Assembly: GCA_046590585.1 (NCBI GenBank)
Contig: JBKJVD010000177.1
Span: 1 to 54,524 of the forward strand
Direction: 5' to 3'
Source: Thermoanaerobaculia bacterium
GTDB taxonomy: Bacteria > Acidobacteriota > Thermoanaerobaculia > Gp7-AA8
Length of the DNA stretch: 54,524 bases
Shown piece by piece: positions 5,921 to 37,304 of the stretch. The notes beneath the pieces were generated by a model. It was not told where the DNA came from, did no database searches, and was given only the letters and a program-made list of their open reading frames with translations. Both the position numbers and the translations under genes were made by a program. Each line of letters opens with the position of its first letter. Positions within the stretch are counted from its first letter, which is position 1.

Positions 5921-6025
5921 CGAATGAGTGATACCGTTCTCCCCTCGGCAGACTGTGATGACGGGCGTTGCATCGAAGCAACTTCTCCGTCGCCCGTTCG
6001 TAACAGTCATATAGCCGGAGGTGCC

Positions 6026-7670: not shown

Positions 7671-8419
7671 AAAAACTGGTCAGAATCGCCGCAGTCGCCG
7701 ACCTCCATGTGAAGAAGACCTCGCAGGGAACGCTGCAACCCCTCTTCACCCACGCGAATGAGAATGCCGACATCCTGGTGCTGGCCGGTGATCTGACCGA
7801 CTACGGCACAGCTGAAGAGGCGCACATCCTGGCGGCCGAGCTGAAGGTAGTGAGAATTCCTGTGATCGCCGTCCTCGGCAATCACGAATTCGAATCAGGA
7901 ACGGAGGCAGATGTCACATCGATTCTCACGGATGCCGGCATCACGATTCTCGACGGAGACTCCACCGAGGTGCACGGAATTGGATTCGCGGGCGCAAAGG
8001 GCTTCGGGGGCGGCTTCGGCCGGCGGCAGCTTGGGGCGTGGGGCGAGAAGATCATCAAAGGCTTCGTTCACGAGGCGATCGAAGAAGCGTTGAAACTGGA
8101 GTCAGGGCTGGCCCGGCTTCGGACTCCGCAGAAGATCGCAATCGTCCACTACTCGCCCATCCAGGCCACGGTCGAGCCGGAACCGCCGGAGATCTTTCCC
8201 TTCCTTGGGTCGAGCCGCCTCGAAGAACCGATCGATCGGTATCGGGTCGGTATCGTTTTCCACGGTCACGCCCATCGTGGCAGCCTCGAAGGAAGGACAA
8301 AAGGGGGAGCCGTCGTCTACAACGTCGCCATGCCTCTCCTCATCGCAAGCTTCCCGGACCTTCCTCCGCTGCGCATTCTGGAAGTGCCCGTCACCATGGA
8401 AGTCCCTGCCACTCCCTGA
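7667..8419 (+). CDS. Metallophosphoesterase (calcineurin-like)
   Basis: Motifs AAVADLH, LAGDLTDYG, GNHE and GHAHRG. The ATG overlaps the upstream stop (ATGA). Confidence 0.85.
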   Translation: MKKLVRIAAVADLHVKKTSQGTLQPLFTHANENADILVLAGDLTDYGTAEEAHILAAELKVVRIPVIAVLGNHEFESGTEADVTSILTDAGITILDGDSTEVHGIGFAGAKGFGGGFGRRQLGAWGEKIIKGFVHEAIEEALKLESGLARLRTPQKIAIVHYSPIQATVEPEPPEIFPFLGSSRLEEPIDRYRVGIVFHGHAHRGSLEGRTKGGAVVYNVAMPLLIASFPDLPPLRILEVPVTMEVPATP

Positions 8420-8433
8420 TCGGGTCTGGCAGA

Positions 8434-17058: not shown

Positions 17059-18069
17059 ATGATTCGTCGCGACATTCATCTGGACTACGACTTTTTCGAC
17101 TACACGCGGCTGGGAGATTCAGTCCCGGAGCCCGATCCAGGCTACATCGACGTTGCCCTGCTCGACATGAACCATTCGTGGCCCAACCTCGGCCACGACT
17201 CGATCGTCCACGCCCTCCTCGAGCTTGCCGAGGGGATGCGGGACCGCCTGGTTCCCGCAGGACTCAAGGTTCGCGTCCTCTCGTTCGATGTGCGCCGCAG
17301 GCTGCTGGTGCCCGGAGCCCATGACAGCCGGTTTGCCATGTACGTCGGAACCGGTGGTCCAGGTCATCTCGATCCCCGGCAGAACGACGGCGTCCACGAA
17401 TTCAGCCAGGGAATCGACGAATCTGCGGAATGGGAAGCGCCCCTGTTCCGCCTGTTCGACGCGATCGTAGGAGATCCGCAGCGGTCTCTCTTCGCCGTCT
17501 GCCACTCGTTCGGCCTGCTCTGCCGGTGGTCCGGGGTCGCTCGCGCCGAATTGCGCGAAGAGAAAAGTTCCGGCCTGCCCATGAACGTACTTTCCGCAGA
17601 TGGATTGAAGCATCCGTGGTTTTCGCGTTTCGCAGAGTCGCTCGCGGATCATCGCAGCTTCCGCGTGGTCGACAACCGTCTCTTCGACCTGGTCTGGGAA
17701 GGTGGTCGCGATGCCACTCCGATCTCGTTCGAGCGCGAGGGGAGCCCGGGATTGACGATGGTCGAACTGGCGCGCGACGCCGCCGACGGGATGCCGCGCG
17801 TGTTCGGCGTCAACCATCATCCCGAGATCATCGACCGCGAACACATCATGCAGGTTCTCGATGAGAAGCGGGAGCATGACGAGGTCTCAGAGACGTGGTA
17901 CCAGGAGCGCGCCGTCACGATGCGCGAACTGTTCGAAGGCGAGAACGAGCGGGAGAGCCGGCAGACATCCAGCTTCACGTTCCTCGAACCGATGCGTCAC
18001 CAGCTCGCCAGAAGCGTCTCGCAACGCATCGATGATCTCTCCCTCACGGCGCAACGTAACGGTAGATGA
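17059..18069 (+). CDS. Class I glutamine-amidotransferase-like protein
   Basis: Nucleophile elbow FAVCHSFGLL and a distal HHPE (His/Glu) pattern. Its last ~51 codons form the left copy of the direct repeat described in the findings. Confidence 0.65.
   Translation: MIRRDIHLDYDFFDYTRLGDSVPEPDPGYIDVALLDMNHSWPNLGHDSIVHALLELAEGMRDRLVPAGLKVRVLSFDVRRRLLVPGAHDSRFAMYVGTGGPGHLDPRQNDGVHEFSQGIDESAEWEAPLFRLFDAIVGDPQRSLFAVCHSFGLLCRWSGVARAELREEKSSGLPMNVLSADGLKHPWFSRFAESLADHRSFRVVDNRLFDLVWEGGRDATPISFEREGSPGLTMVELARDAADGMPRVFGVNHHPEIIDREHIMQVLDEKREHDEVSETWYQERAVTMRELFEGENERESRQTSSFTFLEPMRHQLARSVSQRIDDLSLTAQRNGR
17915..18069 (+). repeat. Direct repeat, left copy (functional 3' end of the GATase-like gene)
   Basis: Hand-aligned to 32786-32938. 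The first 33 nt are identical. A 6-nt versus 4-nt indel follows. The remaining ~116 nt carry 9 substitutions and include the stop codon. Confidence 0.9.
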
Positions 18070-18440
18070 GCGGGCGGAAGTATTCGCCAGGATCGCAACG
18101 CGCGGCTGAACGCTCAAAACCATTTGGGCCATAACGCACGAGAGTCGTCGCCCTGGTTTGTGGCGGTGCCGCACCGAGTTGAAGACCGGCGTCTAACTTG
18201 TCGTTGCAGCGAACCGAAGCCGCACGTTTAGTGGTCCCGAGTCTGTTATTATTCAGCGTGCGGCTCGGCCGCTGAACCTCGAACGATCAGTCTCCTCGAT
18301 CGCCGCGTGTTCAAAAGAGAGCGAGACTGGGAAAAGAGTTCGCACTGATTTAGACAGTCTGGTGCATTGAAGAGACCTCGGCCTCACGATCATGTACGCC
18401 GTTTTGAGTAGCGATCGGATTGCAAAAAGGACACTTGTTC

Positions 18441-21400
18441 ATGACTAACGGTGTGCGCAGAATTGGCCTTCTTCTCTGTGGTTTCGTGGGTGCAGTCTTC
18501 GCCGCCGGAACGGCGCAGGCGGACCTTCTCATTCAGCTCTCTCCCACCGAGCTCTCCCTGGCGCCCGGGCAATGTGGCAAGGTCACGATCACCTCCCAGC
18601 CGCAGCCTGGGTTCCCGGAGGGTGCGGCAAAGATTCGGTACGTGATCAACCGCATCTCGGGCGTCGATGTGATCGAGGCCAAAACAGCCGGTCCCGATTT
18701 TCCGCCTGTGGTGCTGTTGACCCCGGTGCACAACGCCGAGCCCGGGGCTCACTCCATGACCATTACCGCGCTCATCTCTGACAGCGCCGGAAATCAGATT
18801 GGCGACAAGATCTTTCCCGACGCCTTCACGATCACGATCGAGGCGCCGGCCAAGCTGCCTGAGTTCTCCTTCACGATCCCTGAATCCGTCGACGTGACGG
18901 CCGGCCAGGAGCTCGATGTACCGCTCGCATTACAGGCGGAGGGCTTCCAGGGGATGATGAACGTTCAGGCCCATCCGCCTCCGGGAATCTCCATCGATCA
19001 GCCGAGATTCACGATCAGCGCGGGCGAGGAGAAGATGATCCATGTCCGCGTCGCAGCGGATGCTCCGGAAAAAGGAACTCTGGAAGTTCAAGCGCAGACG
19101 AGTCTCGGCGGCCAGATGATTCTGAAGGTCTTCAGGGTCCAGGTCCGCGTTGCCAAAGCGGAGGCGGCTCCCGTCCCGCCAACTCCGCAGACGTCCGGAC
19201 CGGTCATCGGGTCGGGCGGCGAAGTTCGGTTCGAGCTCGACTCGACATCCGTCAATCTTCCGCCCGAAGGTGGCCAGCATCCATTGACGCTCACGATTGC
19301 CAGTGTGAACGGCTCCCATGGGACGGTGACCGTCGACACCAGTACGACCAACGCCGCGCTAAGCCTGGAGGGGAAGGACTGCACGCTTTCTCCCTACGAC
19401 TGCGTTCACGAACGGGTCGTCGAGATCGAACCGAATGGAGAAGTGAAACTGGAGTTTTTTGTCGTGGCCACGGCCCAGGTCGAAGAGATCGCCAAACAGA
19501 TGAACGGGGCCCGATCACTTCTGTTCCTGGCCAAGGCACCAGGGTTGGACACCAGGCGCCTCAGCTTCATCGTCGAGCTTCGCGCGGCCCCGACCCCTCT
19601 GAAAAAAGCGTATACGCTCTCGATCGATCCGCCGTCTCTCGAACTGGACGCGGGCGGCGAGGCCAGGACTGTCGAGATCCGCCTCACTCCCGCGGAAGGC
19701 TTCAACGAGGGAGTGGGCCTGACCTTTGACGGGTACAACACGAGTTCACCGGTTGAGTTGAAAAACTTCGGTCATGACGAGTCGATCTTTCAGGCAGGAC
19801 AATACGAGCCCAAGAAAGTGATCATTCAAGCCAGGGAAGGGGCGAAGCCAGGTCCCTTCTCCATGACCGTACGGGGTACGACGACCTACCAGGACGCACA
19901 CGAGCAGTCCTCGGTGAAACTCCCCATCACGATCAAAGAAGCGCTTGCCGCGACGCTGAAGATCGAGGCCGGAAACGCAGAGTTGTTCTATCCCGCGTGG
20001 AAGGACGTCAAGCTTCGCATCGAAGGGTCGAGAGGTTACTCGGGTCCGGTGACCGTGAAGGCTACCGAGACCGGTCCCTTCGAGGTGGTGCCGGATCGTC
20101 TTGAAGTGGCGTCGCTTCCTGCCACGGTGGATGTGCGCGTGCGCCTGCGACAGGCCGTGACGGGCAACACCGCCATCGAGTGGACCGTCTATGCTGCGAA
20201 CGAACGCCAACTCGCCGCGCAGAGGATTGCGTTCACGGCACTCGATCCGAAGCGCGGCGTGACGTTCACCGCACCCGCGGAGATGTCGATCTCTCCTGGC
20301 GAAGAAAAAAGCCTCGACATCGTGCTGCGCGGCGACACGTTCAAGGGTCCCGTCGACCTGATCCTCTCTCCCTCGAGCGCTCTAAATGTCATCGGCGCGC
20401 AAGTCGTCCGCACGGGGCCAGTCTCTGGCTCGCCTGCCCTGACGCTGCGCGTGCGAGCCAAACCAGACGCGACGATCGGCGAAGGTGGCCAGTCGCTCCG
20501 GCTGAACGTCAAGGCAATGTTTGGCAGCGACGAAGTGGAGATGGGCGAACACAGCATCCGGGTCCTGCTCGTCCCATCAGGCGGCGTCAAACCGGTCGAC
20601 TTCAACATCACGGTGAGCAAAACGCGCCTGGATTTGCTCCTTGGTACGGGCGAAAAAGTCACGGTCAACGTTCAACGCAACGGAGGTTGGGCCGGTCCGA
20701 TCGACTTCGAGATCAAGAACAACGACCACGTCACCGTCAACCCGGAAAAGTTCCGGCTGGAGGGATCTCAAAACTCGCAGGAAATCGAGATCTTCTCGCG
20801 TGTGAGCTTGTCAGAAGGTAGCGAAGACTCGCTCATCGTGACGGCCACGCCGTACGGCGGTGGCAGTGCGAAAGAGGCCTATATCGGCCTTCGGGCGTCG
20901 ACCCTCAAATTGCCCGAGTTCACCATTGCTACGACCCAGCCGAGTCTGCGCGTCCCGACCAATCGCCCGGGACGGATCACGGTGCGCGTAGCCGGCGTGA
21001 ATGGCTGGAACGGGCCGGTGACGCTCACGGTCGCCGACAAACCAGAGTGGTCCATCGTTCAGCCCGAGAGCGTCAACGTCGCGTCGCTTCCCGCGGAGGT
21101 GACCTTCGAGGTAACGCGAACACAGGATGAAGGAGACCCCTCGGATGTCGTGTTCTGGGGAACGGCCGGAACTACGGCGCAGAAGGCCCGGATACCGGTG
21201 CAGTTGATCGTTGGCGGAGGGCAACGCGGGCAACGCGGGACCGACGACGGCCCGTTCGGCGGCTTCCCCGCGCCTGAGGGTCCCCTGCTTTCGCTGCCGC
21301 AATCGCGCGCCGTCGCCGGGGACGTCAGGAGCTCCAACAGCCATGTGGAAGGGTTGGCTCAGGCAATGTCGACCCTGTCGGGCGCGGACATGCCAGCGGC

Positions 21401-22733
21401 AATCGCCATGCTTCAGTTGTATGAAGCGCTCCTTGCCGAAGGGCAGCGAATGGCGGGCATCCTGCCGGGTGACGAGGAGCGCGAGGAACTCAACGCTCAG
21501 CTCAATGCGGAAGTGCTGGCCAGTCAGATCGAAGAATATCGCCTCCATCCAGCGCAAGCGCGCTTCCAGACAGCGATGGTTGGTGGATTTCCCGGTTTCT
21601 TCCTGATCGAGTTGCGAGATTTTCAGCCATCCGATCTTGAAGACATCAAGATCGAGTTTTCGAAGCCGGTGAACTGGGCCACCGCGTCCAACAAAGTCGA
21701 GTTGCTCATTCTGCAGATGAGGTTCGCCCAGAAGGCGGACCAGCTCCAGGAAGACTGGACCGGACCGGCGCGCGAGCGTGTCGGACAACTGTCCGAGGGA
21801 ATCGACAGTCTTGCCGCGAAGCTCGACGAAATCACGCTGACGAAGAAAATGAAACTCGCTGACAAGGTGAAGTTCCTCGTCAGGCCTGTCGCAATCGCCG
21901 GAGCAATCTTCACCACCGCCGACATCGTGGCCAGATCAGTGGTCGCGTTCCTCCCCAACCAGATCAAGGAGTTCTACGCGCAGGTCGATAACCAGCATCG
22001 CGTGGAGGACGACAAAATCTTCCCGGTGATCAAGAAGGGAAAGAAGGTGCCCGTCAAGGTCTTCATCCTGACCAAGAACAAGGGAGGACGGATCGTCTCA
22101 CCGAAAGAGGTGGCCGACTTCTGCTACGGGAAGGTCACTGAGTCCCAGAAATTCAAGGACTGGTTCGACAAGAAGGCCGGGAGCGACAAAGCCGGCGGCG
22201 AAGGGATCTCGGACGCGGAACGCGAAAAAGCGAAAGACGAGATCCGCGCCGAGTTCTTGAAGAAGATCGAGAAGATTGCCGGCACCATCACCGGACTCCC
22301 TCCCATCAAGGAGTGGCTGGAATCCGGATGGGATGTAGCGTCGAAGGATCTCCCGGCAATTGAGGTCAACAGCAACCGCGTCTTGACGATGGAGAGTCTC
22401 TCGCCAGCCGTGCTCGCCGTTCGTGAAGCGCCTGGCTGCGAAGGCGAGCGATATTGCATGGAGGGTCTCGTCGAGACCAGGCCCGGCGAAACAGCGGGGT
22501 ATTTCTTCGCCTTCCGGAACAACCTCCGGAACGGTGTCCTGTCTGTCGTCCCAGGAGGACTCAAGGTCAACGTAAAGGCGGCCGTTATGGTGAAGGATCA
22601 GGAGGAAGTATCTTTCGAGCCGTGCTGGGTCCTCGACGGCATTGTTCACCGGGGCCAGATGCCACGCGACGTAAAGGGCGCAGCAGGACTTACCTTCGAC
22701 AAAGGCAAGACTTGCAGCTTAGGCCAAGGTTGA
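18441..22733 (+). CDS. Giant secreted protein A: signal peptide, about 8 Ig-like beta-sandwich repeats, and a ~500-aa C-terminal module of unknown family
   Basis: Signal peptide RRIGLLLCGFVGAVFAAGTAQA. Repeats of about 105 aa carry the recurrent motif G-(G/N)-(W/F/Y)-x-G-P-(V/I) (NGGWAGPIDF, VNGWNGPVTL, SRGYSGPVTV). The protein is collinear with the paralogue on the opposite strand. The start could also be the TTG at 18420. Confidence 0.85.
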   Translation: MTNGVRRIGLLLCGFVGAVFAAGTAQADLLIQLSPTELSLAPGQCGKVTITSQPQPGFPEGAAKIRYVINRISGVDVIEAKTAGPDFPPVVLLTPVHNAEPGAHSMTITALISDSAGNQIGDKIFPDAFTITIEAPAKLPEFSFTIPESVDVTAGQELDVPLALQAEGFQGMMNVQAHPPPGISIDQPRFTISAGEEKMIHVRVAADAPEKGTLEVQAQTSLGGQMILKVFRVQVRVAKAEAAPVPPTPQTSGPVIGSGGEVRFELDSTSVNLPPEGGQHPLTLTIASVNGSHGTVTVDTSTTNAALSLEGKDCTLSPYDCVHERVVEIEPNGEVKLEFFVVATAQVEEIAKQMNGARSLLFLAKAPGLDTRRLSFIVELRAAPTPLKKAYTLSIDPPSLELDAGGEARTVEIRLTPAEGFNEGVGLTFDGYNTSSPVELKNFGHDESIFQAGQYEPKKVIIQAREGAKPGPFSMTVRGTTTYQDAHEQSSVKLPITIKEALAATLKIEAGNAELFYPAWKDVKLRIEGSRGYSGPVTVKATETGPFEVVPDRLEVASLPATVDVRVRLRQAVTGNTAIEWTVYAANERQLAAQRIAFTALDPKRGVTFTAPAEMSISPGEEKSLDIVLRGDTFKGPVDLILSPSSALNVIGAQVVRTGPVSGSPALTLRVRAKPDATIGEGGQSLRLNVKAMFGSDEVEMGEHSIRVLLVPSGGVKPVDFNITVSKTRLDLLLGTGEKVTVNVQRNGGWAGPIDFEIKNNDHVTVNPEKFRLEGSQNSQEIEIFSRVSLSEGSEDSLIVTATPYGGGSAKEAYIGLRASTLKLPEFTIATTQPSLRVPTNRPGRITVRVAGVNGWNGPVTLTVADKPEWSIVQPESVNVASLPAEVTFEVTRTQDEGDPSDVVFWGTAGTTAQKARIPVQLIVGGGQRGQRGTDDGPFGGFPAPEGPLLSLPQSRAVAGDVRSSNSHVEGLAQAMSTLSGADMPAAIAMLQLYEALLAEGQRMAGILPGDEEREELNAQLNAEVLASQIEEYRLHPAQARFQTAMVGGFPGFFLIELRDFQPSDLEDIKIEFSKPVNWATASNKVELLILQMRFAQKADQLQEDWTGPARERVGQLSEGIDSLAAKLDEITLTKKMKLADKVKFLVRPVAIAGAIFTTADIVARSVVAFLPNQIKEFYAQVDNQHRVEDDKIFPVIKKGKKVPVKVFILTKNKGGRIVSPKEVADFCYGKVTESQKFKDWFDKKAGSDKAGGEGISDAEREKAKDEIRAEFLKKIEKIAGTITGLPPIKEWLESGWDVASKDLPAIEVNSNRVLTMESLSPAVLAVREAPGCEGERYCMEGLVETRPGETAGYFFAFRNNLRNGVLSVVPGGLKVNVKAAVMVKDQEEVSFEPCWVLDGIVHRGQMPRDVKGAAGLTFDKGKTCSLGQG

Positions 22734-22748
22734 AAACCAATTAAAGAT

Positions 22749-22778
22749 CTCGCCCCCGGGAACCTGCCCGGGGGCGAG
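22749..22778. terminator. Hairpin between the convergent giant genes (better terminator context for the minus-strand gene)
   Basis: CTCGCCCCCGGG-AACCTG-CCCGGGGGCGAG, a 12-bp perfect stem. On the minus strand it is followed by AGATCTTTAATTGGTTTTC. Confidence 0.6.
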
Positions 22779-22919
22779 GGGTCCTTCGGTCGCGCGGCCA
22801 GCCAGTGTTTCGGAAACCCGCTGCATCAGGTGCAGATTTGACGATCCGTTGAGCACGAACCGGCGGGTCGCCGATGCCGTGATCCGTCGCCGACGCCACG
22901 CCACGCGAGGAACCCGATT

Positions 22920-25900
22920 TCACGGCCGGTTCGACACGCATTCGCAGTTCTTCGTGATGATGCCGCCGCCCGCATACCCGAGAGCGATGTCGTGGACGGA
23001 CTCGTTCGGGAGTAGGCAGCGCTCTCCGACCGGCCCGAGGCTGCACGTACGCTGCGGAGGCGGCGTAACCTCGACAACGCCTTTTCGGAACAGCCCACAC
23101 TGCGGCGGCACGGTCGGATCGGACGGTTTCACACAAGGCAGGCCTTCGGTCGCTCGACCGAGAGCGATGATGAGCCACGGCTGCAGGCCATAGGAGTAGC
23201 CGGCGGTCTTACCGCTCTGCGTCGGCTTCAGACCCTCGATGTAGTAATGCCCCCTCGACCCTTCACCGAGCTTGATCAGCTCATTCGAACGATTGTTGTG
23301 CTGATTGTCATACTTCAATGACAGCACGCGCTCACTGTTGACGAGGAACGGCCCACGCTTATAGGGCTTGACGGTGATCGGCGCGTCGAGCTTCTGCAAC
23401 CATTCCCGCAGGGCGGGGATGCCGGCGATCCGCTTGTTGATCTCCTCGAGGATCAGGTCCTTCAGGAAATCCTTACTGTCGAAGCCCGGGATTCCTTCAC
23501 TCAGCGCTGCCTCATCTGCTTCCTGCTTCGCGTCGTTGCCCGGCGTCGTCACCTTGCCGACTCCCTTCTTCCTGCCGGCCACCTTGATTCGTCCCTTCAT
23601 TTTCTCCCACACAGGCTTGGCAACGAGTTCCGCGATCTGCGAGAGGCGGACGACTTCGCCACCGGTGGACCTGGCTGTCATGTAGACCTTCAAACTGGCC
23701 TGCGTTCCCTGCATGACCTGCGGGTCTGGCGCATCGGGCCGTTTCGAATAGCCGCCGACATTCGAGTACAGCTCAGCGATGCGGGACGGAATGATTCGCA
23801 ATTGCGCTTCCGACAGGATGTGAATGATGCTGATCGCTGTGGCGGTGGCGGACAGCGTCTTCACGGCCACCTGCCATTGTTTCAGAGTAATCTTGTCGAG
23901 TCCCCACGCCTCGATGCGATCGTTTGTCTCTTTCAGCACGTCGTTGACGATCGCGGTGTTGTTCGCCGCGACGGCGTTCTGGTTGGCCAGCCGCATCATG
24001 TTGACCAGAATTTCGACCGGCTCATGGCCACGCGCCAGGTCCCTCCAATCGACTTTGCCGCTCTTGATGTCGTTGTACATCTCCTTGTTCTCGGCCATGG
24101 AGCTGAAGTCCATCGCGAAGAGGAACGGGAACTGCCCGAGCGACGCGATCTGGAAGGGCGGTGGCAGATTCGCGCGGTTGCGACGCAGGCCACCGCGGAT
24201 GAAAAGCCTGACAATTTCGTCATCGAGAGCCGCCTCGGAGACGCGTGGCAACGTCGCACCGTGCAAGCCGAGGGATGCCTCCTCCTCAGGGTTGAGCGGC
24301 GTGCCGTTGTGGAGCTCGGCCAGCAGGGCGCTCTGCGCATTGGAGAACGCGATGAGCAACTCGATCTGCTCCGGATCGAGAACATCCTCGCCCGCTGCCG
24401 CGGCGGCCGCTGCCATACCGGTAAACGCCGCCGCGGCGTCGTCTGCCGCCGCCATCGACTTCGGAAAGGCGTCGACGCCGGCGAACGGTTCGCCCTGAGG
24501 CGCGGAAACAGGCTCCCGATGCTGCGCCCCGGGCCCGTCTTCGTCGCCGATCACACCGGTAGGAATCTGCGGCTCGATCCATTGTCCTTTTCTCGAATCC
24601 GCGACCACCACCATAGGGAGAGTTGCTGTCCGTGTCGCGCCGTCAGCGGCGACGGCGGTAACTCGCAGCGTTGCGTTTCCAGGCTGGTCCGCCGCAGTGA
24701 CCTCGACCGTCGGTTCGGATCCGGCCCTGAGCTCGCAGCAAGCCTGGCCCGGCCTCGGTTGGAGGAGCCGCTCGAGGCGTAAAGGAAATTCTATTGGCTG
24801 GATGCTCACTCCGCCGCCTTCGACGGTGACCGTGACCTTCAGGATTACGTCGACCGGCGATGACTTTGTGGCGCCTTGAGCCTTTGCGTAAACCGAAATG
24901 GACTTCTTTTGTCCCACGGTAATTCTGAGGGGCGGGGTGATCTTGCCGCCAAGAGCCTCTGCGAGGATCGGATCGTCGAACTCGGTCGTGCCTTCCGGCT
25001 GACGGGCGGTTTGCGGCGGAGGCGGCTGCTCGACGCTCCACTTCTGATTGCCGCCATCCCAGCACGGGCGAAGAATCACTGCGTGCGTTGGATCGCTCGC
25101 GTTGGGCTCCATGCACTTTACGAACTCGCGGCCGATGAGACGGCTCGACGAGTCGAACGTCCACGTTTCGTTCATGTTGCCGCTGTTGCTGCAGGTCCAG
25201 AGAATGATCGGCGTGTCGTCGGTTGTCTGGTTGGAGGTGAGAACGGCGCACTTGCCGCCATTCTGGATCTCGCCGTTCGGACCGAAGGTGAACGTCTGCG
25301 CCTCGACGAGCGATCCGCAGGCGGCCATCACCAGATGCGCTCCGTCGCCGTGCCCGTTGTTCTCGATGGTCAGGCAGTTTCCGTACTCGCGGTTCTTCAA
25401 CATGCCCGAGGCGGCCGGGAAGTGTCTGGCGAGTTTGGCCGTCTTGATCGCCAGCCCCACATACGCTTCTCGCGACGGGCCGCCGCCATCGGGCGACGCT
25501 TTCACCATCAGCGACGGCTCTACGCCGGCGGTCAGGGCGGCATCGCCGCGCGCGGTCACTTCGAACTCCTGCGACGCTCGTCCGGCGTCGAGGCGGAATC
25601 GATCGGGGCGGATGGTGACCTTGTCGTTCCCGCTCACTACCACATCGACGGCGCCGTTCCAGCCACTGCCCCGACGCACCGACAGCGTCACGCCCCCGCT
25701 TTGTCCGGGCAGCAGCTCCAATCGGCTCGGATCGACGGCCACCGTGAAGTCCGCCGCTCCGGCTTTGACCTCGGAACGGATATTCGTCTCGGCGATGAGA
25801 TTGCGATTGGCATGCGCGCGCACTTTGACGTTGACGTATGCGTAGTGATCGGGAGCGGCATTGGGAAGGGCCTTGACCGTGATCTCATGACTTCCCGGAA

Positions 25901-27227
25901 GATGATCGATGGCGAAGCTCTCTTCGCTGACTGTCGTCCCTCCTGCGCTTCCTTTCGCCGTTACGTCGACCGCGCCGCTCCATCCGTTTTCGCCTTTGAC
26001 GGTAATCTGTACTCGCCTCTCTTCGCCCGGTGACAGCTCGAATGCGCCGGGTTCGACGAGCACGCTCGCCGTGGCGTCGCGGTCGGCGATGTTGATCTTC
26101 AATGACGACGACGGAGAGTCGGACGCAAATGCTTCGCCTCCGGCTGCGCCCGTGATCTTCATTTCGAATTCGCCCGGCGCGGCGTCGCCTGCAGCGCGCA
26201 CTGTGATTCGCTTCGGTGCTGTGTCGGCGCTCTGAAAAACATCCTGCTCATACTCGGTTTGCCAGGGCACGCGCGGATCGTGACCTTCCCATCTCAACGC
26301 AACGCCGTTCGTGAAGTCCGCCGCGCGTGTCAGGTGTACTTCGATCGTTTTTACCTCGCCCGGTTTCAGGGTGATGTTGTCGGGCTTGATGGCGATTGAA
26401 AACCCCTTGCCCCCGGGAACCTGCGGCGGCGGTGTTGAGACTGTCGCACCAGCCAGTTTGATATTGACCGTCACAGCCTCGCCGATCGGCTGGTTCGCGC
26501 TGTTGTATGGCGTAATCGGCCAGTCGAGACCTTCCGGCGCCATCTCCGCCTTTTCATGCGCGCGAATGGTGAATTTCGCGTCGGTGTAGGAGCCATCCGG
26601 TTGTTTCTTCACCTTGATGTTGCAGAGGTCAGCGATGACGTGCGTCCCCATGACGGCGAAGCTCCAGCGAACCTCGGGGTCCTGGCAGTCGCCGTTCGTG
26701 TGCACGACGACTTGAGTCCCTTTGAAGTCCCTCGTCAACTCGATGGCCGCCGGTTCGACCGTAGCCGTGCAGGGAACTGAGGGAGCCGGTGCTGCGTCAG
26801 TGACGCTCAACCGGACGATGCCGAACATGAAATCAATGGAATTACCGGGCGTGTCCTCGAAGGAGCCCCACAGCGGGCCGCTGTAGCGCCCTGCCGGGAC
26901 GTTCGACGGGACGGTGATCGTGACCATCACCGAAGACATGGTGTTGTCGCTGCGCGTCGACGTCTGCGGCGAGTCCGTCGTGATGCCGACTTGCTGGCCG
27001 CTCGCGGAGGTGAGGTCGAGTTTGTAGACGACCGACGTGACGCCAGGGGGAGTATTGGTGTTCGTCAGTGTATTGACGGTGATGGTCTCCGCGGTGCCGG
27101 CGGCCATGGTGAAGTTGTTCGGCGTCACGGTTACATCGAACTGCGCCTGCGCCGATGCGCTGACACTCCACCCAATGCACCCCAGCATGAATGCCGCAGC
27201 GAGACACACGAAACGAGACGAGCGCAT
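22920..27227 (-). CDS. Giant secreted protein B: signal peptide, Ig-like repeats, ricin-type beta-trefoil lectin insert, and a paralogous ~490-aa C-terminal module
   Basis: AGGAGA RBS. Signal peptide MRSSRFVCLAAAFMLGCIGWSVSASAQA. Repeat motifs ENGWSGAVDV and GSGWNGAVDV. Hand alignment to protein A is collinear along the whole length. Confidence 0.85.
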   Translation of the reverse strand: MRSSRFVCLAAAFMLGCIGWSVSASAQAQFDVTVTPNNFTMAAGTAETITVNTLTNTNTPPGVTSVVYKLDLTSASGQQVGITTDSPQTSTRSDNTMSSVMVTITVPSNVPAGRYSGPLWGSFEDTPGNSIDFMFGIVRLSVTDAAPAPSVPCTATVEPAAIELTRDFKGTQVVVHTNGDCQDPEVRWSFAVMGTHVIADLCNIKVKKQPDGSYTDAKFTIRAHEKAEMAPEGLDWPITPYNSANQPIGEAVTVNIKLAGATVSTPPPQVPGGKGFSIAIKPDNITLKPGEVKTIEVHLTRAADFTNGVALRWEGHDPRVPWQTEYEQDVFQSADTAPKRITVRAAGDAAPGEFEMKITGAAGGEAFASDSPSSSLKINIADRDATASVLVEPGAFELSPGEERRVQITVKGENGWSGAVDVTAKGSAGGTTVSEESFAIDHLPGSHEITVKALPNAAPDHYAYVNVKVRAHANRNLIAETNIRSEVKAGAADFTVAVDPSRLELLPGQSGGVTLSVRRGSGWNGAVDVVVSGNDKVTIRPDRFRLDAGRASQEFEVTARGDAALTAGVEPSLMVKASPDGGGPSREAYVGLAIKTAKLARHFPAASGMLKNREYGNCLTIENNGHGDGAHLVMAACGSLVEAQTFTFGPNGEIQNGGKCAVLTSNQTTDDTPIILWTCSNSGNMNETWTFDSSSRLIGREFVKCMEPNASDPTHAVILRPCWDGGNQKWSVEQPPPPQTARQPEGTTEFDDPILAEALGGKITPPLRITVGQKKSISVYAKAQGATKSSPVDVILKVTVTVEGGGVSIQPIEFPLRLERLLQPRPGQACCELRAGSEPTVEVTAADQPGNATLRVTAVAADGATRTATLPMVVVADSRKGQWIEPQIPTGVIGDEDGPGAQHREPVSAPQGEPFAGVDAFPKSMAAADDAAAAFTGMAAAAAAAGEDVLDPEQIELLIAFSNAQSALLAELHNGTPLNPEEEASLGLHGATLPRVSEAALDDEIVRLFIRGGLRRNRANLPPPFQIASLGQFPFLFAMDFSSMAENKEMYNDIKSGKVDWRDLARGHEPVEILVNMMRLANQNAVAANNTAIVNDVLKETNDRIEAWGLDKITLKQWQVAVKTLSATATAISIIHILSEAQLRIIPSRIAELYSNVGGYSKRPDAPDPQVMQGTQASLKVYMTARSTGGEVVRLSQIAELVAKPVWEKMKGRIKVAGRKKGVGKVTTPGNDAKQEADEAALSEGIPGFDSKDFLKDLILEEINKRIAGIPALREWLQKLDAPITVKPYKRGPFLVNSERVLSLKYDNQHNNRSNELIKLGEGSRGHYYIEGLKPTQSGKTAGYSYGLQPWLIIALGRATEGLPCVKPSDPTVPPQCGLFRKGVVEVTPPPQRTCSLGPVGERCLLPNESVHDIALGYAGGGIITKNCECVSNRP
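25029..25412 (-). other. Ricin-type beta-trefoil lectin domain (CBM13-like) inside protein B
   Basis: Three subrepeats have a G-x-C-hydrophobic start and a QxW-like end: GNCLT..EAQTFTF, GGKCAV..NETWTF and FVKCME..NQKWSV. Confidence 0.75.
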
Positions 27228-27291
27228 GAACTCTCCTGAGCCCTGAATAATCTACGAAAAGAGAAAGACCAGAAGACTCAATCTGTCAGTA

Positions 27292-27305
27292 TGTTACAAG
27301 TAACA
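27292..27305. promoter_or_regulatory. Perfect palindrome TGTTAC-AA-GTAACA in the divergent B/C intergenic region (candidate operator or UAS)
   Basis: 6-bp perfect inverted half-sites with a 2-bp spacer. It lies about 90-100 bp upstream of the sigma-54-like element at 27390 and about 65 bp upstream of the gene B start codon. Confidence 0.45.
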
Positions 27306-27389
27306 CTAAACAACGAAGCGGAGCCTTTCAGGTTGAAAAGAGCGTACGTCAAAAGTGTAGAAAGAACAGGCGCGCCACTGAGCGGAAAC

Positions 27390-27404
27390 TGGCTGCCCAT
27401 TTGC
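27390..27404 (+). promoter_or_regulatory. Candidate sigma-54 (-24/-12) promoter of giant gene C
   Basis: TGGCTG-CCCAT-TTGCG compared with TGGCAC-N5-TTGCW. The GG/GC spacing is correct and both the TGGC and TTGC cores are intact. It lies about 70 nt upstream of the ATG at 27475. Confidence 0.5.
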
Positions 27405-27474
27405 GGCCGACGGCTGGCAGTGTTGAGTGTGCGCGCCTCTTGACATGAGTTATTTTTCAGGTTCAGGGGGAACG

Positions 27475-30400
27475 ATGCCGATTCAAATTCGTCGAGTGTT
27501 TTCGTGCGTGACGATGGTCCTGTTGCTGCTCTGCGCCGGCAGCGTTCACGCGCAGGGACGAGTGAAAGAAGATCGGGAAACCCCTGTTGCCATTTGGCCG
27601 GACGATCCCTCCGACAGCCGTGGGGATCGCCGCGGAAATGATCCCCAACACCTGCCCGGAGAGGACTCCACTCTTTTCCCCAGTCCCAACGCTGGAACGT
27701 TCACGCTCGAGCCGAGCAACCTCTCTGTCCAGCTCACCAAGGGGATCACCACCTCCATCAACATCCGCGTCATTCCCAGCGGAGGTTTCAGTGATCCAGT
27801 TCAGATCACGACCTCTGGCTCCATTCAGGGCGGGAACGTATCGAACAGTCCAGCCATCATTTCGCCGCCGTACGATCAGACCTCGACGATCTTACTGTCG
27901 GCGACCAACGCCACGCCTTCCGGGCAATACTCGATCAGCATTCTCGGTCAGGCCGGAACCACGACCGTCAGTACGGGACTGTTCGTCAATGTGGTGGCCG
28001 CAGGGGAAGCCACGTTCGGGTTCTCTCTTTTTCCCAACAATGTGGATGTCGTCAAGGGCAGTGGGTTTGCAACGAGCGTCGAGACGTTTACAACCGGCAG
28101 TTTCACCACGCCCATCAACTACTCGATCAGCGGTCTTCCGGCCGGGGTCACCGTAACCGGCCTGCCTCAGACCCTGCAGGCCCCCTACGCCGACATTCCC
28201 GTCGTCTTTTCAGCCACGTCGAGCGCGGTGCCCGGCACCTATACGACAACCGTAGTTACCGGAACGGCTGGCAGCCTGACCTTGACGAAACCGGTCACCA
28301 TCGTGGTGCGGGGCACGGCTGTCGGCGAATACAGCTTCCATGTCGATCCCGTGCCGATCTTCGTGACCGCGGGCGGGCGTCAACTCCTCACGCTCACAGT
28401 CACGTCGTTCGGCGGCTTCTCCGGCGTCGTTACCGTGAATCACGCCGAGTCCCATCCGTCGATCTTTGTCTTGAACAAGAACTGTCCTCTGTCAGGCGGC
28501 CCTTCGTGCCCAATCCAGAACATTCCGCTCAATGTGCCGGCCGGCGGCAGCGTTTCGGAACAAGTGCTCGTGTCCGTCACACCGACCTCGCCAGGCGGAT
28601 CGATCATATTCACGACTTCCACGCCGGGCCTTCCTGACGAGGTTTCAACCTACAGCGTGGATATCGGCGCGCAACCCCCGGGTTTCGACCTCCACGCGGA
28701 CCCTGTCAATCCGACGATTGCCCAGGGTCAAAGCCGTCAGATCACAGTCACGCTCACACGCCTCGACGGCTTCACCGGCGCGGTGCCCGTCGAAGTCACG
28801 GCGCAACCTGGATTCACCTTTGCCGAGCCTCTTCCGATTATCTTCGCTCCGGGAGAGACCTCCAAACCCCTGACGCTCCAGGTCGGCGCAAGTGTGACCC
28901 CCGCGACGAATTACACGGTCAATCTCTTCGCTAGTGTGCCGTCGATCTCCGCCTCAACGGGTGCAACCATTGTCGTGAACGTCACGCCGGCGCCGTCAGC
29001 AGGTAATTTCTTTCTGTTCCCCACTCCGGGCACCATCACGGCCCAACAGGGACAGAGCGGCACGACCACGATCAACCTCACTCGTAGTGGAGGATTCACC
29101 GGCCCCGTCACCGTGGATGCCACCATCGCCGGGGGCCCGGTTGCCGGCTCGGGCTACACCATCACGCCTGCCCTTCCCTTTACCTTCGCCGCTGGAGAGA
29201 CCACGAAGCAGGTCACGATCACTCCCGACACCACCGTCCCGGTGGGAACACACACGGTCACCTTCATGGGCACGGCCAGCGGCATCGGGACCAGGAACTG
29301 TAATGTGCTGGTCAACGTGACGGCCGCGCCGTTAGTCCCGGACTTCACATTCGCAGTCACGCCGAATCCGGTCTCCGTGACGCAGAACGCCAGCACGACC
29401 GCGACCGCCACCATCACGCGAAGCGGTGGCTTCAACGGCGACGTGAATGTCAGCGGTACGACCGGCGCACAGGGAGTGACGATCGGCTCAGTCACGATCC
29501 CCGCCGGCCAGACGACCGCAACGCTCACGATCGTCGCAACGTCCAGCGCGACGACCGGCCCCTCCACCATCAACTTCAGCGCGGCCGCGCCCAGCATCCC
29601 CAAGACTCTGACCTCCGTCATCAACCTGACGGTCGTCGCACAACAGGCTCCGGCCGACTTCACGATCAACGTCGCTCCATCAGAGATTCAGGTCAACGCG
29701 GGTGGAACCGGCCTGGTCACCATGACTCTCACCCGCCAGAATTTCACCGGCAATGTCACCGTCAATGCAACAGGCGGCGCCGGCATCACGATCACGCCCC
29801 AGACGTTCACGTTCAGCGGTACGACGACGCAGGCCTTCAACATTCTCGTAGCCCCCGACGCCCCGGCCGGACGCACGCCGATCTCGTTCACCGCGACTTC
29901 GACCGCTCTCCCTGGCGTGACCCGTTCCGCGAGCGCGGGAGTGACCGTAATTCCTGTGAGCACCGGTGCCCCGATCATCAGCTCGATCACGCCGTCCGCG
30001 CTCGTGGCTGGCGCACAGAGAGCTGTGGTCGTTCTCGCCGGTCGCAATTTCGTGGCCGGAGCGCAGATCTTCTCCAATCGAACGGACGTGGTCGTCGAGA
30101 GCGCGGAGATTCAATCCGACTCGATCGCAATCGTTGTCGTCACCGTGAATCCCTTCGCTGAAGCCGGCCCAACGACGTTCCGCCTGCGGAATCCAAACGG
30201 TCTGACCACCGCGCAGGGAGTCGAGTTGATCGTCTACGAGGAGGGTGACATCGGAGCGCCCCTCGGCGTGACCGCTGCCGCGATTCTCAGTCCTCTCGGC
30301 GGGAAGATCGTCACCAACGTGGATCGTCCCTACGCCACCGGCGTCGTCGCGACCTCGGGAACCGGCACGATCAGCGGCCGCTGGCTGTTCGACGGCGGCA

Positions 30401-32721
30401 CGTTCGACAGTTTCACGATCACCGTTTCCGCCGGTGAGCCGGCCATGGTGACCTCGCGCGTTCCGCTGCCGTCATCGCACGCCGGACCCCACCAGCTTCA
30501 ACTCGTGATCGATGTGCCGCAACAGGCGCAGTCCGCCGCCATTGCCATTCGTATGGCCATCGATAGCGCGAGCAATCTGACCATCCTCGGCCCGGTCGGC
30601 CAGAGCGGAGGCTCGGGAAACGCGGGCGACGCAATGACCCTCCGCTGGTCGATGGTCCCCGGCGCCCAGGGTTACGTCGTCGAGCTGACCCGCGAGGGAC
30701 AGCCGTTCCCGTCCCAGGTTGAAGTCGGACAGGAAGCGGAATTGCCGATCGATGCCGCCGATCTGCCCACCGGCGGCGGCCCGGTTCGTTGGCGCGTTGC
30801 ACCGATGTACTGTTGCTCGGGCAACGACTCCTATGCCGGGACGTTCTCCGATTGGAGCGACCTGCCACTCGATCGAAGCGCACGCGGGGAGCGCGAGCTG
30901 TTCGAATCGATCCGCGACACGGCCATCGCCGAGGCGATGACGCCACGACTGAAGTATCAGCTCGCCCGTCTCGCCGCGAGCGACAGTGACGAGAACTTGT
31001 TGCTCGATTCGTCCACCTACCAGCTCGCCCAGGGAACAGCGCCTGCCCGTACCGGCGCAGCAGGAACGAAATCGAGCCTGCGCTCCGACTGGTCCGTCGT
31101 TCCGATGGCCACCTCGACGTACACCCGTCACGCGACCGATCAGGATGGCTCGATCCAACTCTCGGGTCAGGGCGATCTGGGACTCCCGCCGCTTGCCAGC
31201 AAGTACACGACCGACTTCACTGGAGCGAACATTTACGGTGACGACTTCACCTTCCGGGGCAGCCGCAACTGGATTGTGAACGTCGGCAATGCCAAAGCAT
31301 CAAAGCGGGTCATAAGACCGGAGGCGACCTTTGGCTATGGTCCACCGGACTTCTTCCGCGGAGCGCAACTGGTGACTTCATCGCTGGCGCGTGGGGGTGC
31401 CCTCGGGCGCGTCTCCACCCGCTTCGGCTCCCTTGCGTATTACTCAACCTTCACCGACGCGCTCGACGGAGTCATCGGCGGCAACTTCGGGATGCAGCAG
31501 AAGCTCGATGCCGTGGCGCTCGAATTCCATGAAACGAAGAAGCTCTCGTTCAAGATCATCAGCATGCACGTCGAGGACCTTCCGCTGGCGAGCCAGAGCG
31601 CTCCGCGGGGCGAAGGACGTTCGCTCGGGTTCCTGACCTCGTACAAAGTGAGCCCGAAGCTGCAGCTCGTGGCCGAGGCTTCCCGCGGACGAGGAGAATG
31701 GACCACGCGCGACGGACTGCGCGAGCGCGAAGGGGACGCCTTCCGCATCGGAATGTCGGGCATGCGCGGAAGGACCTCGTACCGCGCCGATTTCAATCAC
31801 ACCGACAGCGACTACGCCAACCCAGGCAACCGTGGCTTCACGGCGGCGTCCATTCCGAACCGCACGGGAGGAAGCCTGAGTATCACCCGCCCCGTCGGTC
31901 GCGGCTCCGCCACCCTGGCCTTGAAACATCAGACCCAGACCCGGTCGTCCATTACCGCGGACGCTACGGGACTGAATTTGTCGTACAACCTGCAACTGAA
32001 GCCGTCCGTCAGTCTGAGTGCGACGGCGAACACGAACGTCGACTCGGCCGACGCGGACACGCAGAGGCGCCTGCCAGGGACCGATCGCCAGCAGCGCGGC
32101 GGCACAGTCACCCTGTCCGAGCGATACGGCCGTCTCAACCTCTCGCAGACTCTCGCCCATCAACGGCTGAACGACGATGTGAATCTGAGCGCGACGAACA
32201 ACGTCACCACGCTCACACTCAGCGGCGGCGGGACAATCGTGCCGAACTTCAATCTCTTCGCCACGTCGACGGTCATTCACAGTGCCGCCGCGCCGACCGT
32301 TGGCGACGGCGACAACATAACGTTCTCATTGCAGCCATCCTTCGCCATACCCCGACTCAATCTGTCGCTGCAGCCGCGCCTGTCGTACAACTTCAACGAC
32401 AATGATTTCCGCCGCACCAGCAATCGGGGCGAGCAGTACGCGGCGCTGATGCAGTGGAGTCCGGACTGGTTCAACAAGATCGGAGCGTTACAGCTCTCTT
32501 CGAACTGGAACCGCACCGAGGATGAACTGCAGGGACGCACGAACCGTTCGCTGAACCGCTCGTACGTCGGCACGTTCACGCTGAAGTGGGGCGAAGGAGT
32601 CGGTGCCGACATGTTTCGCCGCCACAAGCTGCCCGGTGAGCTGCCGGTTACCGGCCGCCAGGGTGCCAGCCAGGATCCGATCAATGGCAGAACGTCCGCG
32701 ACGGCGGGCTCCAGGAAGTAA
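27475..32721 (+). CDS. Giant outer-membrane protein C: signal peptide, at least 7 Ig-like repeats, IPT/TIG domain, further beta-sandwich domains, and a large C-terminal beta-barrel
   Basis: AGGGGGA RBS. Signal peptide VFSCVTMVLLLLCAGSVHA. Repeat motifs (SGGFSDPVQI, FGGFSGVVTV, LDGFTGAVPV, SGGFTGPVTV, SGGFNGDVNV) recur every ~105-115 aa. The C-terminal ~500 aa show alternating-hydrophobic strands. Confidence 0.85.
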   Translation: MPIQIRRVFSCVTMVLLLLCAGSVHAQGRVKEDRETPVAIWPDDPSDSRGDRRGNDPQHLPGEDSTLFPSPNAGTFTLEPSNLSVQLTKGITTSINIRVIPSGGFSDPVQITTSGSIQGGNVSNSPAIISPPYDQTSTILLSATNATPSGQYSISILGQAGTTTVSTGLFVNVVAAGEATFGFSLFPNNVDVVKGSGFATSVETFTTGSFTTPINYSISGLPAGVTVTGLPQTLQAPYADIPVVFSATSSAVPGTYTTTVVTGTAGSLTLTKPVTIVVRGTAVGEYSFHVDPVPIFVTAGGRQLLTLTVTSFGGFSGVVTVNHAESHPSIFVLNKNCPLSGGPSCPIQNIPLNVPAGGSVSEQVLVSVTPTSPGGSIIFTTSTPGLPDEVSTYSVDIGAQPPGFDLHADPVNPTIAQGQSRQITVTLTRLDGFTGAVPVEVTAQPGFTFAEPLPIIFAPGETSKPLTLQVGASVTPATNYTVNLFASVPSISASTGATIVVNVTPAPSAGNFFLFPTPGTITAQQGQSGTTTINLTRSGGFTGPVTVDATIAGGPVAGSGYTITPALPFTFAAGETTKQVTITPDTTVPVGTHTVTFMGTASGIGTRNCNVLVNVTAAPLVPDFTFAVTPNPVSVTQNASTTATATITRSGGFNGDVNVSGTTGAQGVTIGSVTIPAGQTTATLTIVATSSATTGPSTINFSAAAPSIPKTLTSVINLTVVAQQAPADFTINVAPSEIQVNAGGTGLVTMTLTRQNFTGNVTVNATGGAGITITPQTFTFSGTTTQAFNILVAPDAPAGRTPISFTATSTALPGVTRSASAGVTVIPVSTGAPIISSITPSALVAGAQRAVVVLAGRNFVAGAQIFSNRTDVVVESAEIQSDSIAIVVVTVNPFAEAGPTTFRLRNPNGLTTAQGVELIVYEEGDIGAPLGVTAAAILSPLGGKIVTNVDRPYATGVVATSGTGTISGRWLFDGGTFDSFTITVSAGEPAMVTSRVPLPSSHAGPHQLQLVIDVPQQAQSAAIAIRMAIDSASNLTILGPVGQSGGSGNAGDAMTLRWSMVPGAQGYVVELTREGQPFPSQVEVGQEAELPIDAADLPTGGGPVRWRVAPMYCCSGNDSYAGTFSDWSDLPLDRSARGERELFESIRDTAIAEAMTPRLKYQLARLAASDSDENLLLDSSTYQLAQGTAPARTGAAGTKSSLRSDWSVVPMATSTYTRHATDQDGSIQLSGQGDLGLPPLASKYTTDFTGANIYGDDFTFRGSRNWIVNVGNAKASKRVIRPEATFGYGPPDFFRGAQLVTSSLARGGALGRVSTRFGSLAYYSTFTDALDGVIGGNFGMQQKLDAVALEFHETKKLSFKIISMHVEDLPLASQSAPRGEGRSLGFLTSYKVSPKLQLVAEASRGRGEWTTRDGLREREGDAFRIGMSGMRGRTSYRADFNHTDSDYANPGNRGFTAASIPNRTGGSLSITRPVGRGSATLALKHQTQTRSSITADATGLNLSYNLQLKPSVSLSATANTNVDSADADTQRRLPGTDRQQRGGTVTLSERYGRLNLSQTLAHQRLNDDVNLSATNNVTTLTLSGGGTIVPNFNLFATSTVIHSAAAPTVGDGDNITFSLQPSFAIPRLNLSLQPRLSYNFNDNDFRRTSNRGEQYAALMQWSPDWFNKIGALQLSSNWNRTEDELQGRTNRSLNRSYVGTFTLKWGEGVGADMFRRHKLPGELPVTGRQGASQDPINGRTSATAGSRK
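29965..30237 (+). other. IPT/TIG-like domain within protein C
   Basis: PIISSITPSALVAGAQRAVVVLAGRNFVAGAQIF....TFRLRNPNGLT matches the usual IPT/TIG pattern (P-x-I-x-S-I-x-P, G-x-N-F). Confidence 0.6.
31069..32589 (+). other. Predicted outer-membrane beta-barrel region of protein C
   Basis: Many 8-12-residue amphipathic strands separated by G/N/D/S/R turns (SLSITRPVG, ATLALKHQT, GLNLSYNLQL, SVSLSATAN, TVTLSERYG, LNLSQTLAH). A beta-signal-like last strand, YVGTFTLKW, is followed by a 43-aa charged tail. Confidence 0.55.
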
Positions 32722-37191: not shown

Positions 37192-37304
37192 TGCGATCTC
37201 CCGAGTGCCCTCGATTCTATGAGGGCTGGTGGCAGGAACCGTCTTCGGATGCGGTTTCGGCACACGCTGGTTGTGAATCCGTGACAGCGGTGGTGCCGCT
37301 CGTC

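Follow-up and report, generated by a model that had tools for sequence, protein, structure and literature searches.

We analyzed a contig of 54,524 nucleotides from a Thermoanaerobaculia bacterium (JBKJVD010000177.1; "the window" below denotes this whole stretch), which carries two convergent genes, A and B, for large proteins with signal peptides, and a third gene, C, that is divergent from B. A and B are true paralogs that share a C-terminal domain (CTD) of ~470 amino acids, and wherever both flanks of a CTD gene could be inspected, a homolog of C lies next to it; the product of C is predicted to end in a very large outer-membrane beta-barrel. We tentatively read A and B as anciently diverged members of a rare and undescribed family of Sec-exported modular proteins, for which C would serve as the export or anchoring platform: the CTD would dock to C, and A and B would present alternative N-terminal arrays. 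Taken as a whole, we judge this reading to fall a little short of an even chance, with the homology, the domain maps, the rarity of the family, the gene linkage and the barrel fold as its foundation; from these we infer a physical interaction between CTD and C, as well as the topology, the surface exposure and the binding function of the proteins.

Two ancient paralogs and the domain they share

As the first-pass annotation had described, A and B lie tail to tail, with their stop codons separated by 186 bp. Gene A most likely starts at ATG 18441, has AAGGA just 5' of this codon, and is enclosed by an open reading frame (ORF) of 1,437 codons (18420-22733, plus strand); the closest orthologs of the window genes, MBI2213248.1 and MBI2213249.1, point to Acidobacteriota. 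Pairwise BLASTP aligned the two proteins in the repeat region (E 3e-29, 34% identity over 218 amino acids, and a second alignment with E 1e-20, 28% over 269 amino acids) as well as in the non-repeat C-terminus (E 3e-16, 26% over 345 amino acids). The similarity therefore reaches past generic immunoglobulin (Ig)-like repeats into a common non-repeat CTD, which makes A and B true paralogs, at 26-34% identity rather than the ~40% that had been claimed. At the DNA level we found no repeats longer than about 30 nt in common between the two genes, which rules out a recent duplication or gene conversion. Because the two CTDs are 26% identical and belong to different subfamilies, and because similarity at the DNA level was not found, the duplication is, judging from the sequences, an ancient one.

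On inspection, the N-termini of both proteins look like Sec-type signal peptides (residues 1-27 in A, ...AGTAQA/DL, and residues 1-28 in B, ...SASAQA/QF, with the slash marking the cleavage site). It had also been claimed that neither carries a lipobox. Taking as the criterion a signal peptide that ends in [LVI][ASTVI][GAS]C, this holds for A, whose LLLC fails at position -1, but is not fully safe for B: within its signal peptide (27144-27227), MLGC with Cys17 fits a permissive PROSITE-style rule alone, and a canonical type-I site (AQA/Q) follows it. Judged by this motif, B could conceivably be lipidated at Cys17; the relatives of A and B have plain type-I signal peptides. Searches of Pfam and NCBIfam agreed with the first-pass annotation in showing no sortase, type IX secretion system (T9SS), autotransporter or RTX signature in A or B, and likewise returned no outer-membrane targeting signal of a known type in these two proteins and, for A, B and C alike, neither an SLH domain nor another anchoring domain.

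Between signal peptide and CTD, the two proteins differ. In A, eight Ig-like repeats (residues 28-923) lead into a Gly/Pro/charged linker (924-959) and the CTD (960-1430, 471 amino acids), so that the description of ~900 amino acids of repeats per protein is right for A. It is not right for B, in which five clear Ig-like repeats (residues 29-138, 275-377, 386-484, 493-593 and 762-875) are interspersed with a divergent Cys-containing domain (153-260) and a ricin-type lectin (607-733), followed by a linker (876-924) and the CTD (925-1435). The proposed collinearity is consequently partial, with B carrying a lectin that is absent from A and fewer Ig repeats. A hidden Markov model (HMM) seeded on six of the repeats picked up additional copies in all three proteins (A, B and C; E<0.01) in its first round, and in Pfam the repeats of A gave weak Cep192_D3 and cadherin-like matches alone. 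The motif that had been described as recurrent occurs, in its strict form G-[GNS]-W-x-G-x-[VI], twice in each protein, and A has an RGYSGPV variant in addition. As for the lectin, residues 607-730 of B match Pfam Ricin_B_lectin (PF00652) with an E value of 6.3e-19 and 68.8 bits (cutoff 29) over profile positions 2-126 of 126, and among PDB sequences the domain matches CBM13-type modules and plant lectin B chains; A gave no Ricin_B_lectin match in Pfam.

The CTD is unmatched in Pfam, NCBIfam, PHROGs, PADLOC and PDB sequences, both as a single sequence and as a profile, and with Foldseek included, it could not be placed in a known adhesin, S-layer or toxin family, in keeping with the first-pass annotation. 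In an exhaustive profile search, 1.84 billion representative proteins yielded 23 CTD matches at E<=1e-3, A and B among them, and those matches for which a source is named are annotated as hypothetical or by their lectin domain alone. A word-index homolog search returned nothing with the CTD of A, and P0016 alone with the profile of the family alignment (A2). Pattern scans of GTDB representative genomes and JGI metagenome contigs gave no relative; A2 itself was too divergent for patterns to be drawn from it. Two subfamilies can be told apart, namely A-type CTDs (A, P0005, P0007, P0015, P0004 and P0014, at about 27-33% identity) and B-type CTDs (B, with P0003 at 54% and P0032 at 48% as its nearest relatives, and P0006 at 30%).

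All full-length members follow a common plan of signal peptide, variable N-terminal modules, Pro/Gly-rich linker and CTD. The CTD is the sole element common to every family member and the N-termini are freely exchanged, comprising Ig-like arrays, one to three ricin lectins, PapD/ASH-type Ig arrays, or a small "CxDPWV...GEC...YG..W" domain. Ricin-type lectin modules precede the CTD in B, P0007, P0010, P0013, P0019 and P0032, and many members have no lectin. Full-length proteins consisting of a CTD alone were not found; short matches without a signal peptide look N-terminally truncated, and those of their contigs that we checked are short. The small Cys-module (C[RG]DPWV...G.GEC[ND]...YG..W...L...V) is secreted, has no Pfam match, and is fused to the CTD as a series of N-terminal repeats in P0009, P0015, P0016, P0017 and P0022; it is also found as a stand-alone secreted protein directly 3' of CTD genes (L005:12685-13152 and L008:11434-11940).

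The A CTD was modeled with AlphaFold2 (AF2) from a 14-sequence alignment (predicted local distance difference test, pLDDT, 69.5; predicted template modeling score, pTM, 0.64); the model predicts a helical N-terminal half and a mixed alpha/beta C-terminal half. Its long helix (residues 1139-1170, 32 residues) is amphipathic and hydrophobic and is packed in a bundle in the model. The Kyte-Doolittle means of the long CTD helix, 1.66 and 1.60, are exceeded by the signal peptide alone; a polar stripe runs along one face, and the family alignment has conserved Asp and Lys/Arg residues at mid-helix. The beta segment that follows the helix is charged, not hydrophobic. Because alignment A2 contains few invariant polar residues, the CTD is unlikely to be an enzyme. 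A conserved Cys pair closes the tail in the same alignment, and conserved Cys pairs suggest that the tail resides in an oxidizing, extracytoplasmic place. Foldseek searches with the model gave no PDB match below E 0.1 and none better than E 0.04 (query TM-score, TMq, 0.15) in BFVD; the top PDB match, a weak one (E 0.39), was to an S-layer protein domain.

Gene C and its linkage to CTD genes

Gene C has an ORF that begins with GTG 27427; the public gene call uses ATG 27475 instead, which puts the signal peptide at the N-terminus. The protein continues with seven Ig-like repeats of the family that is common to A, B and C, a conserved middle region and the predicted C-terminal outer-membrane beta-barrel, and no family match was found for it at the sequence level in Pfam, NCBIfam or PDB sequences. 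For the last ~520 amino acids, AF2 predicts about 26 long antiparallel strands (pLDDT 72.1, 6-sequence alignment). The best Foldseek match of this barrel is MtrB (6r2q_B, E 1.3e-9, TMq 0.51), and the second is Deinococcus SlpA (7zgx_A, E 3e-8, TMq 0.29); the ushers FimD and PapC (3rfz_B, 3ohn_A and 6cd2_C) match with E 6e-8 to 3e-7 and TMq 0.35-0.43, with TonB-dependent transporters and LptD among the further matches. Omp85-type barrels are absent from the top 50 matches. The best structural matches of the barrel, that is, MtrB, FimD/PapC and LptD, are barrels that house a partner protein or let one pass. The possibility that A and B are themselves versions of C that have lost the barrel was rejected, as hhalign of the CTD profile against the middle region and barrel of C gave a probability below 1%.

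The co-occurrence with gene C that the first-pass annotation had proposed to test was borne out. Adjacency was scored with HMMs from alignments A2 and A3 over all recovered loci, and a CTD gene adjoins a C homolog in 6/6 loci that have both flanks present, namely the window plus five other, independent loci, so that the proposed pair of CTD and giant barrel genes recurs; two more loci (L001 and L010) run into contig ends and are less informative. The adjacent C homologs have full-length identities to C of 63% (L002/L003, an Acidobacteria metagenome-assembled genome; CTD gene P0006), 38% (L006/L007; P0032), 35% (L004; P0007), 33% (L008/L009; P0015) and 31% (L005; P0005). This C homolog is the only conserved neighbor of CTD genes, and the two genes stay side by side, in one order or the other, over a range of 27-67% in barrel identity. 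One cluster of barrels comprises those of the window, L002 and L006 (47-67%), and the B-type CTDs of B, P0006 and P0032 pair with that cluster. Because of this match between barrel cluster and B-type CTDs, we regard B as the canonical partner of C, and A as an additional, anciently diverged paralog. All six other recovered CTD loci have a single CTD gene each, one per barrel gene. The most distant member of the CTD family, P0018 (1,877 amino acids, L011), has, 13 bp upstream, a gene for a putative outer-membrane protein (L011:182-2239); its product of 685 amino acids has a signal peptide and a C-terminal ...VNLF, is not homologous to the C barrel by HMM and, from its sequence features, may be an analogous barrel partner.

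With respect to regulation, a gene for an extracytoplasmic function (ECF) sigma factor (PF07638) is present in 5/6 informative loci, four of which also have a Ser/Thr kinase gene, a known regulatory pairing (PMC7826278). In the window, tblastn found no homolog of either. The region 5' of C contains the window's sole match to TGGC-N7-TTGC (27390-27404, plus strand), against 1.5 expected by chance, and a scan with a stricter sigma-54 consensus gave fewer matches than shuffled controls; with these numbers, we consider the case for sigma-54 control of C to be weak. A sigma-54 activator of 1,357 amino acids is encoded 4.6 kb 3' of C (37305-41378, minus strand), and its N-terminal region of ~1030 amino acids has no Pfam match. 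In L006, genes for Phage_holin_4_2-family and STAS-domain proteins lie directly 5' of the CTD gene (L006:9150-9954), and an unannotated gene for 465 amino acids lies between this pair and the genes for the ECF sigma factor and the Ser/Thr kinase.

Table 1. Coordinates of the main features in the window, with the evidence on which each assignment rests.
Feature	Coordinates	Strand	Basis
Gene A, 1,430 amino acids	18441..22733	+	ORF and translation, repeat HMM, public gene call of equal length
Ig-like beta-sandwich array of A, 8 repeats of ~100-115 amino acids each, residues 28-923	18522..21209	+	repeat HMM
CTD of A, A-type subfamily	21318..22730	+	AF2 model, family alignment A2
Hairpin, 12 bp with 11 G-C pairs, terminator-like, between the stop codons of A and B	22749..22778		sequence
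Gene B, 1,435 amino acids	22920..27227	-	ORF of 1,435 codons
CTD of B, B-type subfamily	22923..24455	-	sequence comparison
Ricin-type beta-trefoil lectin of B, residues 607-733	25029..25409	-	Pfam Ricin_B_lectin and PDB sequence matches
B/C divergent intergenic region	27228..27474		sequence
Gene C, 1,748 amino acids from ATG 27475	27475..32721	+	ORF, AF2, repeat HMM, synteny
Predicted large beta-barrel of C, residues 1205-1730 counted from 27427	31039..32616	+	AF2 and Foldseek

Elsewhere in the window, three genes 5' of A encode an EgtB-like protein (DinB_2 and FGE-sulfatase; 8038-9783), a GCS2 glutamate-cysteine ligase (15843-16952) and an unannotated protein in which the motifs CHSFG and HHPE are amidotransferase-like (17059-18069); taken together, the three could be what is left of a low-molecular-weight-thiol or ergothioneine-type pathway. 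The window also encodes two DUF4097 "toastrack" proteins, at 5924-6817 and 43769-44671, and a protein of 480 amino acids with TPR repeats and two retropepsin-like aspartyl protease domains at 35866-37308 (minus strand). At the window edge (52500-54512, minus strand) lies a gene for a protein of 670 amino acids with VWA and bacterial Ig (Big_7) domains, which is likely to be a surface or secreted protein.

Possible readings of the CTD and the barrel of C

In the reading that we favor, A and B would be exported to the periplasm by Sec, after which the CTD would dock to the barrel of C, or be held in or under it, in the manner of the barrel-plus-partner arrangements of MtrAB, LptDE and usher-adhesin complexes. 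The flexible linker would then allow the N-terminal Ig/lectin array to project from the cell surface. C would thereby provide the export or anchoring route that A and B seem to lack. The first-pass annotation had called this route unexplained, which remains correct insofar as no known signal was found, and the barrel of gene C now offers a concrete candidate. B would act as the canonical partner of C and A as an extra paralog, the two having alternative binding specificities that in B include a glycan-binding lectin. The suggestion of an alternative-specificity arrangement fits the freely exchanged N-terminal modules; the other half of that suggestion, a two-component system that needs both A and B, does not fit the one CTD gene per barrel gene seen elsewhere.

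Extended from the window to all its relatives, this reading becomes a possible but rather doubtful proposal, namely that the CTD and C-type barrel families constitute a new Sec-dependent pathway for outer-membrane secretion or surface display. In such a pathway, an Ig-bearing barrel of ~26 strands would recognize a CTD of ~470 amino acids and export or anchor interchangeable lectin/Ig heads. Its switch would usually be an ECF sigma factor, often together with a Ser/Thr kinase, and it would occur in soil bacteria that resemble Acidobacteriota as well as in a few other lineages.

Counting for the favored reading are the CTD as the one constant element of the family, the constant company of a C homolog (and, for P0018, of a putative outer-membrane protein), the likeness of the C barrel to barrels that take a partner, the Sec signals of A and B in combination with no known type of outer-membrane targeting signal, the few invariant polar residues and the conserved Cys pairs of the CTD, the match of B-type CTDs with one barrel cluster, and the lack of a conserved immunity-like gene. 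Several points weigh against it. A CTD of 470 amino acids is large for mere docking or for a secretion tag, and its helix of 30 residues, with a hydropathy of marginal transmembrane grade, would also suit a membrane-active effector. Gene A, convergent with B, is separated from C by 4.7 kb, which makes the link between A and C the weaker one, and the similarities of CTDs and barrels are partly congruent only: the CTD of L004, for instance, is A-type, and its barrel clusters with that of L006. In addition, adjacency of CTD and barrel genes might arise from co-regulation alone, and the AF2 models are of moderate confidence (pLDDT 70-72) and built on shallow alignments of 14 and 6 sequences.

The main rival, which we consider unlikely while taking it seriously, holds that A and B are cytolytic toxins targeted by their lectin and Ig modules: the N-terminus would bind glycans or proteins of a target cell, the CTD would be the effector, for example an alpha-helical pore-former, and C would be an exporter only. 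Such a role is consistent with a CTD that is large and complex, with a predicted helical bundle followed by a beta-rich part, and with the hydropathy and the one-sided polar stripe of its central helix. Moreover, a beta-trefoil lectin joined to a pore-forming domain is an established design, as in Tpp80Aa1 (PMC9784298) and SaroL-1/CEL-III (PMC9468336), and pairs of ECF sigma factors and Ser/Thr kinases govern anti-predator weaponry in another bacterium (PMC13147305). Against it, the CTD has no match in Pfam or PDB sequences, and the Foldseek matches to the pore-formers NheA and ClyA are noise (E 1.1-1.9, TMq 0.12-0.14, root-mean-square deviation above 25 Å, with a model of moderate confidence). 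The conserved Asp and Lys/Arg at mid-helix and the charged beta segment after it also speak against a pore-former, and we found no conserved immunity-like gene near CTD genes in the related loci.

A further idea, less probable still, takes A, B and C for surface or coat proteins (resembling adhesins or an S-layer) that act independently and have only their regulation in common, with A and B using some other, general route. The Ig-like repeat family common to all three, the weak top match of the CTD to an S-layer protein domain, and the ECF sigma factor beside five loci (four of them also with a Ser/Thr kinase), hinting at a common regulon, would all agree with this idea. It is at odds, however, with the tight adjacency of the two genes across barrels as divergent as those compared here and in either gene order, as well as with the lack of an SLH or other anchoring domain in the Pfam and NCBIfam searches, and it leaves the conserved CTD without a role.

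Two-component toxins composed of paralogous subunits exist, and the presence of two divergent paralogs side by side could be taken to mean that A and B are the obligate halves of a two-component system, an arrangement of the type that the first-pass annotation had suggested. We regard this as very unlikely: the six other CTD loci have a single CTD gene each, A and B belong to anciently separated subfamilies of which each occurs alone elsewhere, and the two genes are transcribed convergently rather than as one operon. Finally, the hydropathy of the CTD helix, at about 1.6, reaches the classical threshold for a stop-transfer segment, which would make A and B bitopic inner-membrane proteins with a periplasmic Ig/lectin array and the last ~260 amino acids in the cytoplasm; with conserved charges (Asp, Lys/Arg) in a helix that AF2 packs in a bundle, conserved Cys pairs past it that are typical of extracytoplasmic proteins, and a periplasmic lectin array being biologically implausible, we give this possibility hardly any credence.

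If the CTD is indeed a handle for a dedicated giant barrel, it would represent an undescribed route to the surface in diderm bacteria, from a poorly studied soil phylum, and two families now annotated as "hypothetical protein" would gain a function. It would also be a natural plug-and-play scaffold, with a tail that stays constant and heads (lectin, Ig or Cys-domain) that change, and the adjacent ECF sigma factor, usually accompanied by a Ser/Thr kinase, would offer a regulatory input open to testing. Were the CTD a membrane-active effector instead, it would constitute a new toxin fold.

Comparison with known systems

Full-text literature searches returned no description of a CTD/giant-barrel system. 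We compared the proposed pair to known systems that resemble parts of it. The beta-trefoil-lectin toxins (Toxin_10/Tpp, CEL-III and SaroL-1) share with B and its relatives a ricin-type lectin N-terminal to a larger C-terminal domain. These pore-forming toxins end in an aerolysin-like domain (PMC9784298, PMC9468336), whereas the CTD has no aerolysin-like match and many CTD proteins are lectin-free. The ClyA/Nhe/Hbl toxins are marked by a long bundle of helices with a hydrophobic beta-tongue head; against these the CTD gave no Pfam match and, with a model of moderate confidence, Foldseek noise alone. Polymorphic toxins, which combine a conserved trafficking part at the N-terminus, variable toxin tips at the C-terminus and an immunity gene next door, have the reverse polarity: in the CTD family the N-terminus is variable and the C-terminus conserved, and we found no conserved small immunity-like neighbor.

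Among secretion systems, T9SS likewise relies on a conserved C-terminal domain that is common to diverse cargo. The C-terminal domains of T9SS are beta-sandwiches of about 80-100 amino acids, in contrast to the ~470 amino acids and predicted alpha/beta structure of the CTD, and Por_Secre_tail/TIGR04183 was not found at E<=1 in Pfam or NCBIfam. Type V secretion is similar in that A and B appear Sec-dependent, with a variable N-terminal "passenger", a conserved C-terminal element and a dedicated barrel gene; in C, too, the passenger precedes the barrel. It differs in that Pfam and NCBIfam searches of A, B and C found neither the Autotransporter beta-domain of type Va, the A CTD being modeled as alpha/beta and not as a barrel, nor the two-partner secretion (TPS), haemagglutination-activity, POTRA and Omp85 domains of type Vb, and in that about 26 strands are predicted for the barrel of C rather than 12 or 16. 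With respect to SusC/SusD, C has no Plug or TonB_dep_Rec match in Pfam and the CTD has no SusD-like match, while A has no lipobox and B only the permissive MLGC.

Three further systems have large barrels that the C barrel resembles in structure. Deinococcus SlpA, which forms a surface layer (deinoxanthin-binding complex), is a giant barrel with a long extra-membrane extension as well; C differs from it in having no SLH domain or coiled-coil stalk in Pfam, and the TMq is only 0.29. The chaperone-usher pathway resembles the present system in that the C barrel is structurally near the 24-strand ushers FimD/PapC and the cargo is built of Ig-like domains. It differs in that C has no Usher match in Pfam, no PapD-family chaperone was recorded by Pfam for any called gene in these loci, and A and B are single long polypeptides with a non-Ig CTD rather than polymerizing pilins. 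In MtrAB, MtrB is a 26-strand barrel that sheathes MtrA, holding its partner inside the barrel (PMC7198977). Pfam and PDB sequences gave no family match to C, MtrB_PioB included, CxxCH haem motifs (the mark of the multihaem periplasmic partner) are absent from A and B, and C carries an Ig-rich N-terminal extension of ~1200 amino acids that MtrB does not have; the likeness lies in MtrB being the best fold match of the C barrel and in a very large barrel gene being located beside the gene for a Sec-exported partner. What defines type V secretion, T9SS, chaperone-usher, porin-cytochrome, SusC/SusD or polymorphic-toxin systems is absent from the pair. The CTD and the C-type barrel are two undescribed families, but the logic of a dedicated barrel with a Sec-exported partner is a familiar one.

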